A DNA stretch of 64,000 nt, from the NCBI RefSeq assembly GCF_003018235.1, contig NZ_CP027437.1; one strand, 5' to 3'. Below the pieces are notes generated by a model. It was not told the DNA's origin. It saw only the letters and a list, made by a program, of their open reading frames with translations, and made no database searches. The translations under genes and the position numbers were made by a program. Below are positions 6,947 to 44,504 of the stretch, piece by piece (the first letter of the stretch is position 1; the number at the start of each line of letters is the position of its first letter). The DNA is from Escherichia coli. Its GTDB lineage: Bacteria; Pseudomonadota; Gammaproteobacteria; Enterobacterales; Enterobacteriaceae.

Positions 6947-9784
6947 TTATTCAAAATAACGTTCAAAGTTATAAGCACTTTGTAATGAGGCCCGCTTACC
7001 CTTTTTAGCTAGATCTATACCACCACTTCTTAAACCCTCATCAAAACTTCCGAGCACATCATAAAAATGTGACATTTCATGAATCAAAGTTATGACTTGT
7101 GAATCACGACCGTCCAGGGGATCGTCAATAAATTTATTTCCAAGATAAATGGTATGGGTATAATCTCCATCATTAACTCTTCCATGAACATTAACATCCA
7201 TAAATTCAAAATTTTGGTACTTAATCCCCTCATTAATTTCAATTTCTTTTTTTACAGCGTTTAAAATTTTATTCCTGGCTGCCTCATCATCAACACCGAA
7301 TATATTTCCAAAACGCTCTTTATCGTTATCATTCCAACGAATCAACTCATCTCTTGCTGATTTTAATTTTTTACGCTGCGCTTCAAGAACAAGTTTCATA
7401 TCATTTTCACTGATCCTTTTCTCCTCTATCATTTCATAAACAGGATTTCCATAATTATCTGTAAGAGGTTTTCCATTATATCCAATTATAGCTACTCCAT
7501 TACCCGGCCCTGATGTAGAAAAATCTCTAATTGTATTAATTTTATATTTACCATTTGCGTCACTACCGCCAGGATTCAGTGCCAAGTGAGTAGGTCCATC
7601 AAGGATGATAGTGCCGTCTGAATTCATCACGAGAGTGCTGCTTCCCACAGTCAACGTAATGTTCGTTGCCGCAGTCAAATGAATGGCACCAGATTTTGAT
7701 GTGATGGTAATATCCCCTTCGACAGTCTCCGTGCAGGTTCCCGTTTCTACCGTCACTTCGCGTTTACCCGTTTTCACCGTCAGAGACTGGTCACCTTCTG
7801 TCACAGTAATATCCCGGTTGCCTTTGATGGTTTCGGTGTGCTTACCCTCAACAAATTCTGTGCGATCGATTTTTACCGTAGATGTTTCGTTATGAATGAT
7901 GGTTTTCGTCCGATCTGCCTTTACCGTGTGTGTTTCGTTATTTTTCACGACGGTATTCAGATCTTTCTCCGCAAGAAACCTCACTTCTTCCGCACCTGTT
8001 TTATCGTCAAAGCGCAGCATGTTTCCGTTGGTCGGCCCGCCATACAGCGAGTGGCTGAATATCCCGCTCTGCGACGCCATGCCCGGCAATCCCCACGGCG
8101 GCATGGTGTCCTGGTTATAGGTGCGCCCTACAATGATCGGTAAATCCGGGTCGCCGTTTTTGAAATCCACCAGCACTTCCTGGCCGATGCGCGGGATCTG
8201 GATCATCCCGAATCCTTTCCCCGCCCACGGGTAGCTGACGCGGATCCAGCAGGAGCTGTTTTCGTCATTCTTTCCGTAACGGTCCCAGCCAAACTGGACC
8301 TTCACCCGGCCATATTTATCCGTCCAGATTTCCTGCCCCGCAGGGCCGGTGACGATGGCGCTCTGCGGGCCTTTGGTGTGGGGTTTGCTCAGGGTTCGCT
8401 GTGGGCGGTAAACTTCGCTGGTGGGATGCAGTTCAAACGTGGTGACATAGGTAAAATGCTGCTCCTGACCGCTGTGCTGCGCATTATCCCGTAAAAACAG
8501 CGTGGTCTGTACCAGTAGGTATTCCTGGTTGACCTCTGCCGTTGGATGATTCATCAGCGTAAAGGTGTAACCCGTCATGAGGGTGCGGATATGACCTGCC
8601 CCATGTGCCCGGCTGCCGGGGCTGCGCTGCGCTTCCATACGAATGCGCGTCAGCATCTCGCCTTCGCCCGTAGTGAAGTAATCACCAGGCCATTCATAAT
8701 GCTCGTATTCAGCATGACCGGTATCACGCGGACTAGCCACGGTACTTTTAAGCAGCGAACGAGGCTTCATAAAATCAAAATCGTCCATCACCCACTTTCC
8801 AGTACGTAGCCTCTCACTGGCCGTAATGGTGTGGATAAATTCCTTGTCCAGTTTCAGACCTTCCTGGTGCCACTCCACCAGTGGCGAGTCAGGGCACGCT
8901 TTATGACCATTGATGGCATCCGCCAGCACCAGCGTATGGCTGTTCTCGCTGTGCTCAAACCACCAGTAAATTCCCCACTCCTGCATCAGGCGCTGGATGA
9001 AATCAAAATCCGTTTCACCGTACTGTACCTGCCAGGCACGAGGTGGATAATTTTCCACCAGCCGTTTTTCCACCGGAAAGGAATATTCATCCAGTACTTC
9101 ATCGAGAATATCCACCACGGTTTTATTCTGGAACGCCTTGTAGTCGCTGGTATGGGTCAGCAGCTTCAGCCATGGCTCAATGCGTAATTCATACGTTACC
9201 GAACGGCCCTCATGGCCGACCACCCGCGCTGCCGTCACCAGCCCGCTGATATACCGTTTTTCGCCACCGTCCAGTTCAATACTGACGCACAGGTCTTTGC
9301 CCACCATGGGCTGAAGCGGCAGGTTGGCAGCGGGAGAAACGTAACCCAGGTTCAGGATGTCCGGCGTTTTAAGCTGTACTGTGTAGGAAAACAGATTCCC
9401 AAGTCCTTCCGAACCATTCATGCCTGCAAACAAAAGCAACTGCGGCGGCACCGCGCTACCACTTACTGTGACGTTATGCGCCCCCGGACCACCGGCTGCA
9501 AGCGACGACGCCGCATCCTGAACTGTACCAGCCATATCCGAGATCCCTACTGCAGCAGCGGCAGCCTGCGCAGCAGTTACTGCAGCTTTAACCAGACCTG
9601 ACGGTTCCGGCAACGCACCAAACAGGTCCGCCGCGGCCTGTTCTGCCATCTCCTCGGCGGCACCAGATACATCGGTTACGGCTGAACTGGCGCTTACAGC
9701 ACTACTTTCTCCGGCTATCGGTGGCGTGGAGATAGCTGGCCCACCGTTACTGCCAGATTTATTACTCGTAGATACAAAACTCAT
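6947..9784 (-). CDS. vgrG: VgrG (TssI) spike protein, 'evolved' type, with an AT-rich C-terminal extension containing an HExxH motif
   Basis: 945 aa. gp27-like region ([25 protein letters not shown]), gp5 OB-fold and beta-helix repeats (VKVQFGWD..., TVKxxR repeats). C-terminal about 180 aa is low GC and contains LIHEMSHF. Good SD (AAAGGA) upstream of the ATG at 9784. Confidence 0.9.
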
Positions 9785-9808
9785 GATATTTATTCCTTTA
9801 ATATCGGA

Positions 9809-10180
9809 TTAGAATTTAGCGCCCGGCGGCCAGAAAAAATAAGAAATAACCCGCCACTGTCCATCTTTATAATGAAAAAAACATGTCAGATTTAAATCCC
9901 CCCGCAAATGCCAAAACATTTCTTTGATGGGAATATTTCTGAATTTAGGATTTGTTGAGCGATAGGTGTTTTCAATTTCTATATAATACTCACCGACAAA
10001 TTTATAACGAGGATTTATAAATTCATACGCTGGCTGACCATAGTTATTTAATAGAACATTCTCTTCAACTCCATTATACACACCACTCGCATTCAGATAA
10101 GCATGCCCAGGAATATCAGACATGCTATTTTTCGCCCCACCCACTATCAAAAAAATTACCACAGCGTATATTAGTTTCAT
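9809..10180 (-). CDS. Hypothetical exported protein (N-terminal hydrophobic signal/anchor); candidate immunity protein for the upstream HExxH protein
   Basis: 123 aa, N-terminus MKLIYAVVIFLIVGGAKNS; AT-rich; its start overlaps the stop of the upstream ORF by 4 bp. Confidence 0.45.
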   Translation of the reverse strand: MKLIYAVVIFLIVGGAKNSMSDIPGHAYLNASGVYNGVEENVLLNNYGQPAYEFINPRYKFVGEYYIEIENTYRSTNPKFRNIPIKEMFWHLRGDLNLTCFFHYKDGQWRVISYFFWPPGAKF

Positions 10181-11863: not shown

Positions 11864-14800
11864 TCACAGCGCTCGCTCCGGGCAGGCGAAGCGTTGCAAT
11901 AGTCCGCGATCCACTGGGTCAAAATCCCGTCCGGCGGTGATTTCCAGTATCACCCGCCGACCATCAAAGCTGTACTCCACCTGCTGTGTTCCCCGTACCG
12001 CCGTTTCTTGCGCTTTTCCCGCATCCAGCAGGTGAAACAGCGCCCACGGTCCATTAGTCAGCAGCGTCGAGGTGTCCTGGCGGATGCGCGGGCTGGCGGT
12101 TATTTCCGCCATTGAGCCGTTGCGCGGACCCGGCCAGTTAACTTTCAGCGGCCTGACCGGGCCGTGAGCGTAACGCAGTACCTGGCCGTCAATGTCAATC
12201 ACCAGTTCGGTGATGGCCGGGTCCATATCCACGACGCGGACCTGCATCGCCCATGAGAACTTTTTCCCTCCGTCGCCGTTAAAAAACACGCTGCGGATCT
12301 GTTTCGCCTCCTGAAACGGCGTCAGGTCCGGCCCCTGTAAGGTCATGTTGCCTTCGGTCGGTTTGTAGCGCCACGGATTGCTGGCGGTGTCCGCCTGTGG
12401 GGCCAGTTGCTTCGTCCAGAAGGCATCCAGCACGCCGCCGCTGGCAAAGATACGGTTAAAATCGTCCGCGCTGACCTCCTGCGGGCTGTCGGTGAAGGGG
12501 TAGCGCCCGTCGATGGCGTCGCGGCACTCATCACCGATCACCGCTTCCATCTGCGCGTTCAGCACTTCACCGGTGCCGGCGTTGATTTTTCGCGTTCCCT
12601 GCTGCGTGAGATCCAGCAGAATATTTTTCAGCGGCGCGGGCAGTTTTGCCGCCTCCAGTTGCAGTTTATCCGCCGCAGAAATGCGCCCCGGCAGAGTGCT
12701 CGCAGCCAGCGCACTGTCGGCAATGGTGAGCTGAGTGTAATACTCATTGAGCATCGTCAGCAGCGAATTTAATTGCGGCACGCCGCCGCCCTGCCCGCTG
12801 TCCGTCCGCCCGGAAACCACTTCCCGCAGGGCGGCGAAGCGGTCTTCCACCAGTGATTTTTCCAGCCGCTCTTCCGGGTGAATGTCCTGCAACAGCTTCG
12901 CCGTCTGCACCGCTTTTCCCGCATTGCCGGAGAGCCGGTCCTGCGCGCGCTGGGCCATCTGCTTTTGTCTGGCCTGCGCATCCAGAGGCGGCACCAGCGT
13001 GGTCTGCACCACCACCGCTTTACTCAGGCGCATCAGCGGGGAATCCGGCGAGGCCAGAGTGCGGAGCACCTGAAGGTCATACGCTAGTCCAGGGCTACCG
13101 TCCTCCCCGGCGCTGTTGATGCTGTGAATGCTTGCCAGAAAATCCTGCCATCGGCGAGCATATTCAGCCAGGTACAGACGACGTACCTCACGGGTAACCG
13201 GGAGTTCCTGCCCCGGTAGCTGACTCATCACAATATCAGTCGTTTTTTTTTGCGCACTTTCCCGGCCCATCACCCAGGCGTCGTCCGCTGATGCGGCGGC
13301 GACAAACTCCGACAGCCGTTTGTCGAACAGTTCCCGGTAGCCTTCGCGGGTGAAGATGCCGGGCACGCCCCTGTCCAGCGGCGCGCCATCCGTGCGGACA
13401 AAAACCGTTCCCGCATCCGCGCCCACAGCGCGAACCAGCGAAAACTCCTGCGGTGCTTCGCTCTCCATGGAAGCCAGGGCTCGAGTGTAGATACGCTCAG
13501 TGCTGTTATGGCCGTCAAGGAAGGCCCGCGCCTGGCGGATCAGCCCCTCATCTTTTTCCCAGGGCGAATGCACCACGCGGCTGCCGTCAAACAGGGCGTC
13601 AATATGCTCCAGCACGGCTGCGCGACCGCCAAACTCCGCTACGCTGTCGCGGTTGTCCAGATCGTTCAGCACCCAGGCGTGGATCTCCGCCGCGTTGTAT
13701 TTGTCCTCGTGGTCCTTATCGAGGTTCAGCAGCAGATAAACATGCAGGGCGTCATAGGCGGCTTTGCTGTCCTGACGCGCAATCGCATCTGAAAGCACGT
13801 ATTCCATTCGTTTCACCAGCGGAGGGAGCAGTAGCTGGTCCAGCAGGCGGTCATACAGGGATGCGACACTCTCCATCACCGGCGGGACGCTGTAAAGACC
13901 ATAACGCCAGGCCAGCGGCGGCGAGTCCGGGTCCATCCCCGGCCAGGCAGAGAGCGCCCGCGCCTGATTCAGCAGGGCCGGAACAGGCTGCATAGCAGGT
14001 TTTCCGGTATAGGCTTTGACATCACCATCCAGTTGGGTCGTCCGGCTGGCGATTTCATTCAGATAACCGCTGTTACCCTGCTGGCTACCCTGCATTCCCT
14101 GCCACAACCAGAAAACCAGCGCCAATACCAGCAGATGCCCGCCGGTACGCAGCAGGCGATAACGCCAGGCCCATTGAAGATTCGGCTCCACCAGGTGCGC
14201 TTCGCGGAAGATAAACCGCGTCAGTAGATCGTGCAGGAAATAGCTGCGGTTGCCGTCCGGCAGGGTATGGGATGGGGAATCTGCCTTCCCTTTGATCGCC
14301 CGGACAAAACGCTGCCAGATGCCTGTCTGATCGGCCACCGCGTCTGCCTGCGCCTGCGCGGCACTGGTGAAAAATACGCCGCGCAGGGTGTTGTTAAGCT
14401 GGGTAGCATCAAATTTTGAATCGAGGAAAATCTGTTCAATAGCTTCCAGCAGCGGCGCGCCCAGCGCGGCAAATTCACGCGGGAAGCGGTAGAGCCGCTG
14501 ACGGCTTTTAAGGTCGTACTCTTCCTGCAACCGGGTATCCAGCCCCTGATCCAGCCGCTGTGTCAGGTTTGCCAGTTCCCGGCCACAGAGCGCATGCAGC
14601 GACTGCGGATCGCTGGCGTGACGCCTGCGGCTGTAAGGCAGGGTGAAGCCCCAGACCTGGGCTCGCAGGTGACTGGTCAACCCACGGAAATACTCCGTAA
14701 AGCCCGGCAGCAGATCCATCTTGGTGACAACCAGATAGACCGGAAAACGAATGCCCAGCGTCTCCCGCAGTTCCGCCAGCCGCGCACGCAGAGCTGCACA

Positions 14801-15730
14801 GGCAGCCAGCCGTTCCGCCGGGGACTGCGCGGTCAGATCCGCCACGTTCAGCGTCAGGATCACGCCGTTGAGCGGTGCGCCTGGGCGGTGTTTACGCAGC
14901 AGCCCCAGAAACCCCTGCCATTCCCCGGCGTTACGCTGGGTCGCGCTGATTTCGCCGCCGTCATCGTGTCGGGCATAGCGCCCGGCGGTATCAATAAGCA
15001 CTGCTTCGTTGGTAAACCACCAGTCGCAGTGCAGCGTGCCGCCGCCCGGCACGGTGAGGATATGCGCGGTCTGCTCCATCTGCTCCGCCAGCGGAAACTG
15101 TAGCCCGGTGTTAAGCAGCGCAGTGGTTTTACCATCGCCGGGGCTGCCGATAACCATAAACCACGGCAGTTCGTACAGAAAACGCTTTCCTTCCAGGACT
15201 TTTCGCCAGCCAGGAAGATCCACACGCAGTTGTTTCAGTTGCCGGATGGCGCGGCTGACAATATGGCTGACGGTACGCAGGTCGGCTTTAATTTCCCCTG
15301 CCACAGGTACGTCTTCCCCACGCGGATGCAGGAAACGGCGCAGCAGTTGTTCATCCAGACGCAGCGCCCGCCACAGCCGGTACAGGCCATACAGAGCATA
15401 AGTCAGCAGGATCAGACCGATAAGCGTCAGACGCAGCCACAGCGGCGCAAATGGATGAACATCACCGAGGGACAGCAGGGGTGAAACAAAACCGATGACC
15501 AGGCACAGAACCGTCACGCCAATGATGCTCATCGACCAGTTAACCAGCCACAGTGCGAGGAACATCAGTAACAGAACGATGGTGACTACCCGACTTCCCA
15601 CGGACGCGAGCGGATGCAGGGTGTCAAACGCCACCAGCGGCCCAACAAACCAGACCAGCAACGCCAGCATCACCACGCCAACAATGGCCAGCGCGCGGCG
15701 GGAAAACAGCATACTGAGAAATTTTTGCAT
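11864..15730 (-). CDS. tssM: TssM (IcmF-like) T6SS membrane complex protein
   Basis: 1288 aa; N-terminal TM helices; Walker A GSPGDGKTT; large periplasmic C-terminal domain. Confidence 0.9.
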   Translation of the reverse strand: MQKFLSMLFSRRALAIVGVVMLALLVWFVGPLVAFDTLHPLASVGSRVVTIVLLLMFLALWLVNWSMSIIGVTVLCLVIGFVSPLLSLGDVHPFAPLWLRLTLIGLILLTYALYGLYRLWRALRLDEQLLRRFLHPRGEDVPVAGEIKADLRTVSHIVSRAIRQLKQLRVDLPGWRKVLEGKRFLYELPWFMVIGSPGDGKTTALLNTGLQFPLAEQMEQTAHILTVPGGGTLHCDWWFTNEAVLIDTAGRYARHDDGGEISATQRNAGEWQGFLGLLRKHRPGAPLNGVILTLNVADLTAQSPAERLAACAALRARLAELRETLGIRFPVYLVVTKMDLLPGFTEYFRGLTSHLRAQVWGFTLPYSRRRHASDPQSLHALCGRELANLTQRLDQGLDTRLQEEYDLKSRQRLYRFPREFAALGAPLLEAIEQIFLDSKFDATQLNNTLRGVFFTSAAQAQADAVADQTGIWQRFVRAIKGKADSPSHTLPDGNRSYFLHDLLTRFIFREAHLVEPNLQWAWRYRLLRTGGHLLVLALVFWLWQGMQGSQQGNSGYLNEIASRTTQLDGDVKAYTGKPAMQPVPALLNQARALSAWPGMDPDSPPLAWRYGLYSVPPVMESVASLYDRLLDQLLLPPLVKRMEYVLSDAIARQDSKAAYDALHVYLLLNLDKDHEDKYNAAEIHAWVLNDLDNRDSVAEFGGRAAVLEHIDALFDGSRVVHSPWEKDEGLIRQARAFLDGHNSTERIYTRALASMESEAPQEFSLVRAVGADAGTVFVRTDGAPLDRGVPGIFTREGYRELFDKRLSEFVAAASADDAWVMGRESAQKKTTDIVMSQLPGQELPVTREVRRLYLAEYARRWQDFLASIHSINSAGEDGSPGLAYDLQVLRTLASPDSPLMRLSKAVVVQTTLVPPLDAQARQKQMAQRAQDRLSGNAGKAVQTAKLLQDIHPEERLEKSLVEDRFAALREVVSGRTDSGQGGGVPQLNSLLTMLNEYYTQLTIADSALAASTLPGRISAADKLQLEAAKLPAPLKNILLDLTQQGTRKINAGTGEVLNAQMEAVIGDECRDAIDGRYPFTDSPQEVSADDFNRIFASGGVLDAFWTKQLAPQADTASNPWRYKPTEGNMTLQGPDLTPFQEAKQIRSVFFNGDGGKKFSWAMQVRVVDMDPAITELVIDIDGQVLRYAHGPVRPLKVNWPGPRNGSMAEITASPRIRQDTSTLLTNGPWALFHLLDAGKAQETAVRGTQQVEYSFDGRRVILEITAGRDFDPVDRGLLQRFACPERAL

Positions 15731-15949
15731 TATTGTTCAGAACTCCACATTGTAATCATCAACAATAAAAGGCCACAAGCTGAAAATGTTTTCCCGATTC
15801 AGCACAAAAAAATAGATGGCGATCCGAAACATCACTAAACCTGAAAAATAAAATTTCGCAGCATCATTTTATTTACATCATCACGCAACAACGTTGTCAT
15901 TATTAGGTTTATGCTCAATATTTTAATTTATATACAAAATCATTCGAGT

Positions 15950-16050
15950 TGCATCAAGGCGGCAAGCGAGAGGATCCCGAAGCATTTATTCCGGTAAGTG
16001 ACTCGGGTGAACGAGTGCAGTCAACGCAGAGGCAACCTGAAGGATAAGGT
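15950..16050. repeat. ERIC/IRU-like intergenic repeat
   Basis: Contains GGTAAGTGACTCGGGTGAACGAGTGCAGTCAACGCAGAGGCAACCTGAAGG, closely resembling the ERIC core (AAGTAAGTGACTGGGGTGAGCG...), in the gap between the Tldi1-like gene and tssM. Confidence 0.5.
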
Positions 16051-16057
16051 GTATACA

Positions 16058-16513
16058 TCAAAATTCTCTGGATAGAATAATATAGCCATTGAATCTTACG
16101 GAACACTCATTTTCATTAATAAGGCCGGATGCAATAACAACATCTTTCCCCCTGTCATTGTTAATATAGGTATATTTTGCCACAATAGACTTAGCATGAT
16201 TTTCATAGTAGCTATCAAAATACGATTTTTCATCTAACATTGCCTTCTTATTTCTGGCTTTGTCCTTCTCATAATCAATCTTAGCCAGAGACTCTGCATA
16301 AAACTTAGACACAGGAGAAACATCAAGAACTTCTACCCTTGTTTTATCTCTTAAAATAGTAGAAGAATTTATATTCAAATCACTTTTCATTGCATCAAAT
16401 AACGACAACTCTATTGAGGCTCCAACCGTAGCGCAACCATCATTTTGTGCATATGAAATTGCAGGTATGCCAGCTAACAGGCAGATTATTACCTTGAACA
16501 TATTAGTCCTCAA
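16058..16513 (-). CDS. Periplasmic protein, candidate Tldi1-like immunity protein
   Basis: 151 aa with signal peptide (MFKVIICLLAGIPAISYAQ); AT-rich; overlaps the upstream effector-like gene. Confidence 0.5.
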   Translation of the reverse strand: MRTNMFKVIICLLAGIPAISYAQNDGCATVGASIELSLFDAMKSDLNINSSTILRDKTRVEVLDVSPVSKFYAESLAKIDYEKDKARNKKAMLDEKSYFDSYYENHAKSIVAKYTYINNDRGKDVVIASGLINENECSVRFNGYIILSREF

Positions 16514-16871
16514 CCACTAATATTTTATCAGTACTGGCAGCAATAACCTTGCGATAAGGTAAATCCAGAATTATACAGCCATCAGAGGCTTCTCCTGGAT
16601 GGGCTGAACTCTCTCCGTGTATCATGAAACCGTCACGCCCGCACATTTGATTTTCGGGGTAAGGCGTGAGCCTCATCGTCCATGCTCTTGTTCTTGCATG
16701 AAAAAATGCAGGTCCAATTGTATATGAACCTCTTGGCAATGGTCCCTTATCTCTTACACACTCATTAACAGAGTCATCTTTAAAACCCGGTCTGCCAGAA
16801 TATCTGGCATTGAACTGATAGCTACCATTTAAATAAAATGAACGTGCATTAATTTTGTATACCCAAGGCAT
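16503..16871 (-). CDS. Tlde1-like (DUF2778, L,D-transpeptidase-fold) candidate T6SS effector
   Basis: 122 aa; motif IHGESSAHPGEASDGCIIL (His ... x14 ... Gly-Cys) resembles the L,D-transpeptidase/Tlde1 catalytic motif; AT-rich; followed by a signal-peptide protein. Confidence 0.5.
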   Translation of the reverse strand: MPWVYKINARSFYLNGSYQFNARYSGRPGFKDDSVNECVRDKGPLPRGSYTIGPAFFHARTRAWTMRLTPYPENQMCGRDGFMIHGESSAHPGEASDGCIILDLPYRKVIAASTDKILVVED

Positions 16872-44321: not shown

Positions 44322-44504
44322 TCACAACCCGAAGATGTTTCTTTCGATTCATCATCGTGTTGCGAAAATTTGAGAGACTCACGAACAACTTTCGTTGTTC
44401 AGTGTTTCAATTTTCAGCTTGATCCAGATTTTTAAAGAGCAAAACTTCGCAGTGAACCTTTGCAGGTACACTCTGAAATATTTTTTATTTAATCACTACA
44501 GAGA

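Follow-up and report, generated by a model that had tools for sequence, protein, structure and literature searches.

ERIC is a 127-bp non-autonomous miniature inverted-repeat element of Enterobacterales that has been known since 1990. Insertion at a TA dinucleotide with duplication of that TA is its reported signature (PMC3184786, PMC2229807). The closest described systems are in Yersinia. As summarized in PMC2229807, PMC3184786, and PMC10969869, De Gregorio 2005 (J Bacteriol 187:7945) found that Yersinia ERICs adjacent to a stop codon share one orientation, and that the transcript upstream of a stop-adjacent copy accumulates less than the transcript downstream. The cause proposed, according to the same three summaries, is that ribosomes block closing of the ERIC hairpin and unmask an RNase E site in its 3′ inverted repeat.

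The window analyzed here is a 64,000-nucleotide stretch of Escherichia coli DNA (NZ_CP027437.1). A sequence-only reading had placed an ERIC/IRU-like sequence in the gap upstream of tssM and had suggested that it influences tssM expression. Its general premise, that ERIC RNA hairpins can affect mRNA stability, is found in the literature, in De Gregorio 2005 as represented in PMC2229807, PMC3184786, and PMC10969869. The feature in the gap is very probably one ERIC (IRU, RU-1) copy, an explanation that as a whole includes insertion at a TA and a proposed effect on the operon mRNA.

Genomic context

The gap upstream of tssM spans 15731–16057 (327 bp), between the tssM start at 15730 on the minus strand and the TGA stop codon (16058–16060) of the upstream open reading frame. 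The positions of the open reading frames and the stop codon show that the coordinates first proposed for the gap were exact. tssM (11864–15730, minus strand) encodes 1,288 aa, carries this name in RefSeq, and has the Pfam domains IcmF-related_N, IcmF-related, and IcmF_C. On the other side of the gap are a SciR-family gene for a putative periplasmic immunity protein of 147 aa (16058–16501, minus strand) and a Tlde1-domain effector gene of 122 aa (16503–16871, minus strand; PF10908, E 1.1e-12), which RefSeq names “tlde1 domain-containing protein.” RefSeq and Pfam together describe a minus-strand T6SS operon with tssH through tssB, tssC, tae4, tai4, hcp, tssJ, tssK, and tssL; after tssL come the Tlde1-domain gene, the 147-aa gene, the gap, tssM, and then tagF. 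The locus belongs to a SPI-6-type T6SS cluster and lies in its variable effector-immunity region, which separates tssL from tssM.

The gene context given earlier is supported. tssM, the minus-strand T6SS operon, and the place of the upstream gene after a Tlde1-domain gene were all found. The name “Tldi1-like” for the 147-aa gene comes by adjacency only, from its position next to the Tlde1-domain gene. RefSeq lists its product as a hypothetical protein (WP_000477415.1), and searches of this protein against Pfam and NCBIfam returned no family. Its N-terminus is signal-peptide-like, and it is 73% identical to Salmonella SciR, which bears the old label “Shiga-like toxin A subunit.” The characterized Salmonella Tlde1/Tldi1 pair is located downstream of tssM, in VR2 (PMC10469887).

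The 327-bp gap is 100% identical in Escherichia coli MEI003 (NZ_CP071263), and by blastn the entire gap is present in just 14 of 5,426 complete E. coli genomes. The ERIC described here is one more unannotated copy of a known repeat, in a cluster carried by ~0.3% of complete E. coli genomes.

Several other features of the region were recorded. The tlde1/tldi1 cassette and the leader of tssM (15731–16871) have 32–42% GC vs 60.7% for tssM (11864–15730), and by base composition the effector-immunity cassette is foreign to the core of the T6SS. Part of the tssM 5′ region (~15057–15592) was also detected at ~93.5% identity elsewhere in E. coli (best match of 128 records in the 90–95% identity band), in genomes whose annotation at that place is TssA or late control D protein. 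E. coli E69 (L038), a species representative, has a tssM that is truncated after residue 339. The vgrG downstream of tssM and tagF is annotated as an incomplete pseudogene and a neighboring gene as frameshifted (7606–9783 and 9808–10180; identical RefSeq record), so this T6SS cluster may not be fully functional. Elsewhere in the window, Rfam StyR-44, an ordinary feature of enterobacterial rRNA operons, matches at 44329–44437 with 124.9 bits, beside the 23S gene in the 16S-23S rRNA operon region.

Identity of the element

Positions 1–127 of the 127-nt E. coli ERIC consensus of Wilson and Sharp 2006, as printed in Table 1a of PMC2759123, align without gaps to 15929–16055 of the window, and 96 of 127 positions are identical (75.6%). 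The gap scored 65 against the consensus in local alignment; 1,000 shuffles of the gap scored 10.7 on average (sd 1.5), with a maximum of 19. The alignment is significant and bears out the ERIC/IRU-like sequence first noticed in the sequence-only reading. The element is a full-length ERIC/IRU miniature inverted-repeat element of 127 bp, in the standard consensus orientation on the plus strand, and occupies only 127 of the 327 bp of the gap. Both of its ends are 5′-TA-3′, the TATA termini that are a feature of family members.

The ERIC-like motif quoted in the sequence-only reading, GGTAAGTGACTCGGGTGAACGAG, is located at 15993–16015. The ERIC2 primer sequence matches at 18 of 22 positions at 15992–16013. 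The ERIC1R primer site, taken in register and hand-counted from the consensus alignment, matches at 12 of 22 positions. The central core, on which these ERIC-PCR primers are placed, is recognizable but degraded; its conservation does not formally define the family.

Related sequence is found throughout the species. The 131-nt ERIC part of the gap was matched by blastn in 5,425 of 5,426 complete E. coli genomes at 72–82% identity. The blastn search with the gap identified 37,694 dispersed ERIC places in E. coli in total, with a median of 7 per genome, and matches between the window ERIC and other E. coli copies had an E value of 8e-28. RefSeq annotation carries no repeat feature on the window ERIC or on the K-12 puuR-puuC copy.

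Nine other E. coli copies were fetched for comparison: puuR-puuC, dxs-yajO, yafP, hsdR-hsdM, queA-acpH, pgk-fbaA, a racemase gene beside gyrA, ybhI-ybhJ, and ilvN. They are 126–128 bp in length and 83–88% identical to the consensus, vs 75.6% for the window ERIC, which is the most diverged of the ten. All ten inspected copies are intergenic. Their alignment separates two subfamilies, and the window ERIC groups with the puuR, hsdR, and queA copies. Like known E. coli ERICs, it is colinear with the consensus over 127 bp, has TATA termini, forms the hairpin of an imperfect palindrome, and lies between genes; it differs in its location in a rare accessory T6SS cluster, whereas the other copies occupy core-genome sites. 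On every defining feature examined, the window ERIC fits the ERIC/IRU family. It is an unremarkable member that has decayed somewhat and occupies a new locus.

One of the comparison copies abuts a start codon. The annotated start codon of acpH takes its A from the last base of the queA-acpH ERIC (L091, 606–733), which places this ERIC in a 5′ leader.

Insertion site

Orthologous loci were gathered via TssM and via the SciR-family protein. Citrobacter koseri (L099) has the empty site, which reads ...GAGAGTTTTGATG-TA-AATTAAAATATTGCGC..., and the filled site of the window reads ...GAGAATTTTGATG-TA-[123 nt]-TA-AATTAAAATATTGAGC... on the mRNA strand. Directly around the target, C. koseri has GATG-TA-AATTAAAA and the window has GATG-TA-[123 nt]-TA-AATTAAAA. 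The E. coli gap is the C. koseri gap with an insertion of exactly 125 nt at a TA, which is now present twice, and the remainder of the gap is colinear in the two species up to the start of tssM. By this comparison, the TA at the mRNA-5′ end of the ERIC (16054–16055, minus strand) and the TA at its mRNA-3′ end (15929–15930, minus strand) are the two copies of the target-site duplication.

The ERIC transposed into a TA that follows the stop codon of the SciR-family gene at a distance of 2 nt, and 2 nt now separate this TGA (16060–16058) from the first mRNA base of the ERIC at 16055. The insertion lengthened a pre-existing AT-rich tssM leader of ~200 nt to 327 nt. Since the gap without the 125 nt is colinear with that of C. 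koseri, the 198-bp leader at 15731–15928 (minus strand, 32% GC) predates the ERIC. The E. coli and C. koseri loci form a textbook filled/empty pair for ERIC insertion at a TA in Escherichia, with an unusually clean footprint.

The filled state of 327 nt is present in the 14 complete E. coli genomes and in 3 representative E. coli contigs. No ERIC is present in the 203-nt tldi1-tssM gap that C. amalonaticus shares with one metagenome contig and two read-archive contigs, in the 329-nt gap of C. farmeri, or in the 33-nt sciR-tssM gap of Salmonella. C. amalonaticus and C. farmeri were rejected as clean empty sites and show ERIC absence only, as the distal parts of their gaps are rearranged: one segment is common to both, and another is common to C. 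farmeri and E. coli.

The proximal ~115 nt of the tssM leader are common to C. farmeri and C. amalonaticus. Conservation of the leader does not clearly exceed that of the coding sequence on its flanks (83–86% vs 75–84%). A 31-aa open reading frame in the leader (15737–15832, called in L100) was rejected because Citrobacter indels break its frame. C. amalonaticus also has a duplicated tssM 5′ fragment (L009, 3998–4371) that is 77% identical to that of the window and sits upstream of tlde1-tldi1 and the intact tssM. This fragment looks like a trace left when a cassette was inserted through recombination inside the tssM 5′ end.

Predicted RNA structure

Each strand of the ERIC folds into a single long imperfect hairpin in minimum free energy (MFE) predictions. 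The minus strand, which is the mRNA strand, folds at −32.3 kcal/mol (z −2.3) and the plus strand at −38.9 kcal/mol (z −3.4); the mRNA strand is thus the less well folding of the two. Folding of the transcript, which had been proposed as a check on the hairpin, predicts the expected long structure. MFE folding and RNAalifold agree on its arms. The 5′ arm in the mRNA (15994–16055, minus strand) begins 2 nt after the stop codon, and the 3′ arm (15929–15989, minus strand) has the AU-rich end GAAUGAUUUUGUAUAUA.

RNAalifold with the ten E. coli copies identified 33 pairs, 8 of which have compensatory double changes. Across the ten copies 97.6% of cells are paired, vs 24–44% when the 3′ partners are slid, and none of 500 shuffles reached the observed covariation values. 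The window ERIC carries the compensatory changes of its subfamily and breaks 3 of the 33 consensus pairs (5/124, 58/72, and 62/68). RNase E-like motifs of the RNWUU type, a short and common motif, are found at 15941, 15940, and 15929. In the folding model of the free RNA, the stem includes the region of the stop codon. Keeping the first 11 nt past the stop codon single-stranded raised the mean unpaired probability from 0.23 to 0.59 in the 17 nt that end the ERIC (GAAUGAUUUUGUAUAUA). The folding model agrees with the Yersinia picture and is no proof of it.

Orientation and proposed effect on mRNA

Because the plus strand of the window reads in the standard consensus orientation, transcripts of the minus-strand T6SS operon would contain the ERIC as its reverse complement. 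All three E. coli ERICs located ≤4 nt after a stop codon (hsdR, 4 nt; ybhI, 1 nt; window ERIC, 2 nt) put the reverse-complement strand in the mRNA, whereas those located 10–178 nt after a stop codon put the standard strand in the mRNA (6/6). In this small sample, the orientation of the window ERIC matches the rule of De Gregorio 2005 as summarized. It would belong to the “B” class, as judged from nine E. coli loci.

To the extent that the B-oriented ERICs of Yersinia enterocolitica are described in the summaries, the window ERIC resembles them in its TA insertion with duplication, its adjacency to a stop codon, and its place between two genes of an operon. It also has an AU-rich 3′ inverted repeat that, in the folding model, would be exposed if the 5′ arm were occluded. 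It differs from the summarized Y. enterocolitica ERICs in being a diverged copy in another species, for which co-transcription and an effect of RNase E are predicted.

No terminator-like site was detected when the gap was scanned for terminators, and the ERIC is therefore probably co-transcribed with the minus-strand operon. In the operon mRNA it would form a long imperfect hairpin with its base right after the stop codon. If the Yersinia model holds, ribosomes that finish translation at the stop codon of the tldi1-like gene would prevent the hairpin from closing at its base, and the AU-rich 3′ arm would then be exposed to RNase E. Cleavage would separate the fate of the upstream tssJKL-tlde1-tldi1 segment from that of tssM and the genes downstream, with the lower stability expected for the upstream segment. 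If the published model applies, it predicts an effect mainly on the upstream genes and not on tssM, the gene named in the sequence-only reading. A regulatory role of the ERIC in the T6SS operon is plausible by analogy, and the stoichiometry of baseplate and membrane-complex genes could be affected. The locus offers a natural test of the Yersinia mRNA-decay model for stop-adjacent ERICs inside a multigene secretion operon.

Alternative explanations

Nothing requires the window ERIC to have a function, and it may equally be a neutral passenger. We give about even chances to an ERIC insertion that is real but does not measurably change the expression of tldi1, tssM, or other T6SS genes. ERICs are generally regarded as selfish mobile repeats, and to our knowledge most E. 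coli copies are old and have no demonstrated function. The window copy is diverged (75.6% identity to the consensus), has three broken stem pairs, and sits at a locus that only 14 of 5,426 E. coli genomes have. The orthologous clusters of three Citrobacter species lack it, so clusters of this type do not have it as a conserved component. Neutrality fits less well with an ERIC that is still full-length and retains its two termini and the greater part of its hairpin, or with membership in the stop-adjacent orientation class that, in the available summaries, is reported to affect upstream mRNA in Yersinia (PMC2229807, PMC10969869). Action at the level of DNA or transcription is improbable. The ERIC could supply or disrupt an internal tssM promoter, and a sigma-70-like site (TTAAAA-16-AATAAT, 15926 to 15899, minus strand) is present directly downstream of it. 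However, promoter-like matches are not enriched in the region (4 vs 2.2 ± 1.2 in shuffles), and C. koseri, with a 17-nt indel there, retains neither the −10 nor the spacing of this site. The long hairpin could pause RNA polymerase and might act as a terminator or attenuator, but the scan of the gap found no terminator-like site, and the hairpin is followed by AAAUUAAAA, not by a U run.

The remaining explanations concern the identity of the element. It is very improbable that the feature is a separate small RNA gene, with expression of its own and akin to Rfam V_AS5 or Ysr49. At gathering thresholds Rfam has nothing in the gap, and relaxed thresholds gave only sub-threshold matches to these two families. 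The matches are weak but full-length: the window ERIC aligns to positions 1–129 of the V_AS5 model (RF02818, 21 bits, E 0.1) and to positions 1–124 of the Ysr49 model (RF02766, 18.8 bits). These scores are far below the gathering values of 96 and 95 bits, respectively, and no promoter and terminator pair frames the ERIC. Neither V_AS5 nor Ysr49 was accepted as the family of the window ERIC, and V_AS5 was rejected because ordinary E. coli ERICs match it better. Chance similarity or a low-complexity artifact can be set aside almost entirely. Only the modest identity of 75.6% speaks for it, and the shuffle scores, the genome-wide homologues, the shared compensatory changes, and the exact empty site with target duplication refute it.

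Ordinary E. coli ERICs (L093, 605–728; L090, 600–723) match the full RF02818 model at 45–47 bits (E ~1e-7), below gathering. This similarity suggests that V_AS5 (Vibrio RNA AS5) may itself be an ERIC-derived transcript, and V_AS5 and Ysr49 appear to be transcribed ERIC relatives from other genera.

ERIC copies in related T6SS clusters

A profile built from the ten copies identified a full ERIC in 5 of 5 Salmonella SPI-6 loci and a half ERIC in Enterobacter sp. ENT03. These sit in the same tssL-tssM variable region as the window copy. The Salmonella ERIC resembles the window ERIC in its repeat family, its location in this region, and its position beside a SciR-family gene. It differs in insertion point and has the opposite orientation in the mRNA, and the two copies are ~75% identical; the Salmonella copy is therefore an independent insertion. 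Three independent ERIC copies or fragments are located at cassette junctions: after the tldi1-like gene in E. coli, at a truncation of tlde1 in Salmonella, and as a half element in Enterobacter. Three events in about nine sampled lineages, noticed after the fact, are suggestive. A survey of SPI-6 reported that no mobile elements flank these variable regions (PMC10469887), and a full-text literature search found no mention of ERIC in T6SS clusters. An “ERIC” match in a tiling-array paper on RNase E proved to be the name of an author.

The observation that small mobile repeats do occur within the variable effector-immunity region of SPI-6-type clusters is relevant to cassette exchange. A broader proposal, which we consider unlikely, is that ERICs repeatedly mark, and perhaps help to drive, the turnover of effector-immunity cassettes in the tssL-tssM region (VR1) of SPI-6-type T6SS. 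This AT-rich, compositionally foreign DNA (32–42% GC vs 60.7% for tssM) offers many TA targets. If the proposal were true, ERICs could supply homology or breakpoints for deletion and exchange of cassettes, and could set different mRNA stabilities for cassette and core genes.

The Salmonella ERIC is located at 2291–2417 in L081 and L082 and at about 2803–2929 in L096–L098. Its neighbors are sciR on one side and, on the other, a Rap1a/Tai4-like gene with a stop codon that overlaps the ERIC. The ERIC also abuts what is left of tlde1 (the last ~18 codons), directly upstream of sciR. In C. koseri this tlde1 remnant is present without an ERIC. The half ERIC of Enterobacter sp. ENT03 (L003, 2329–2374) corresponds to consensus positions 82–127 and lies between two pairs of open reading frames of effector-immunity size.
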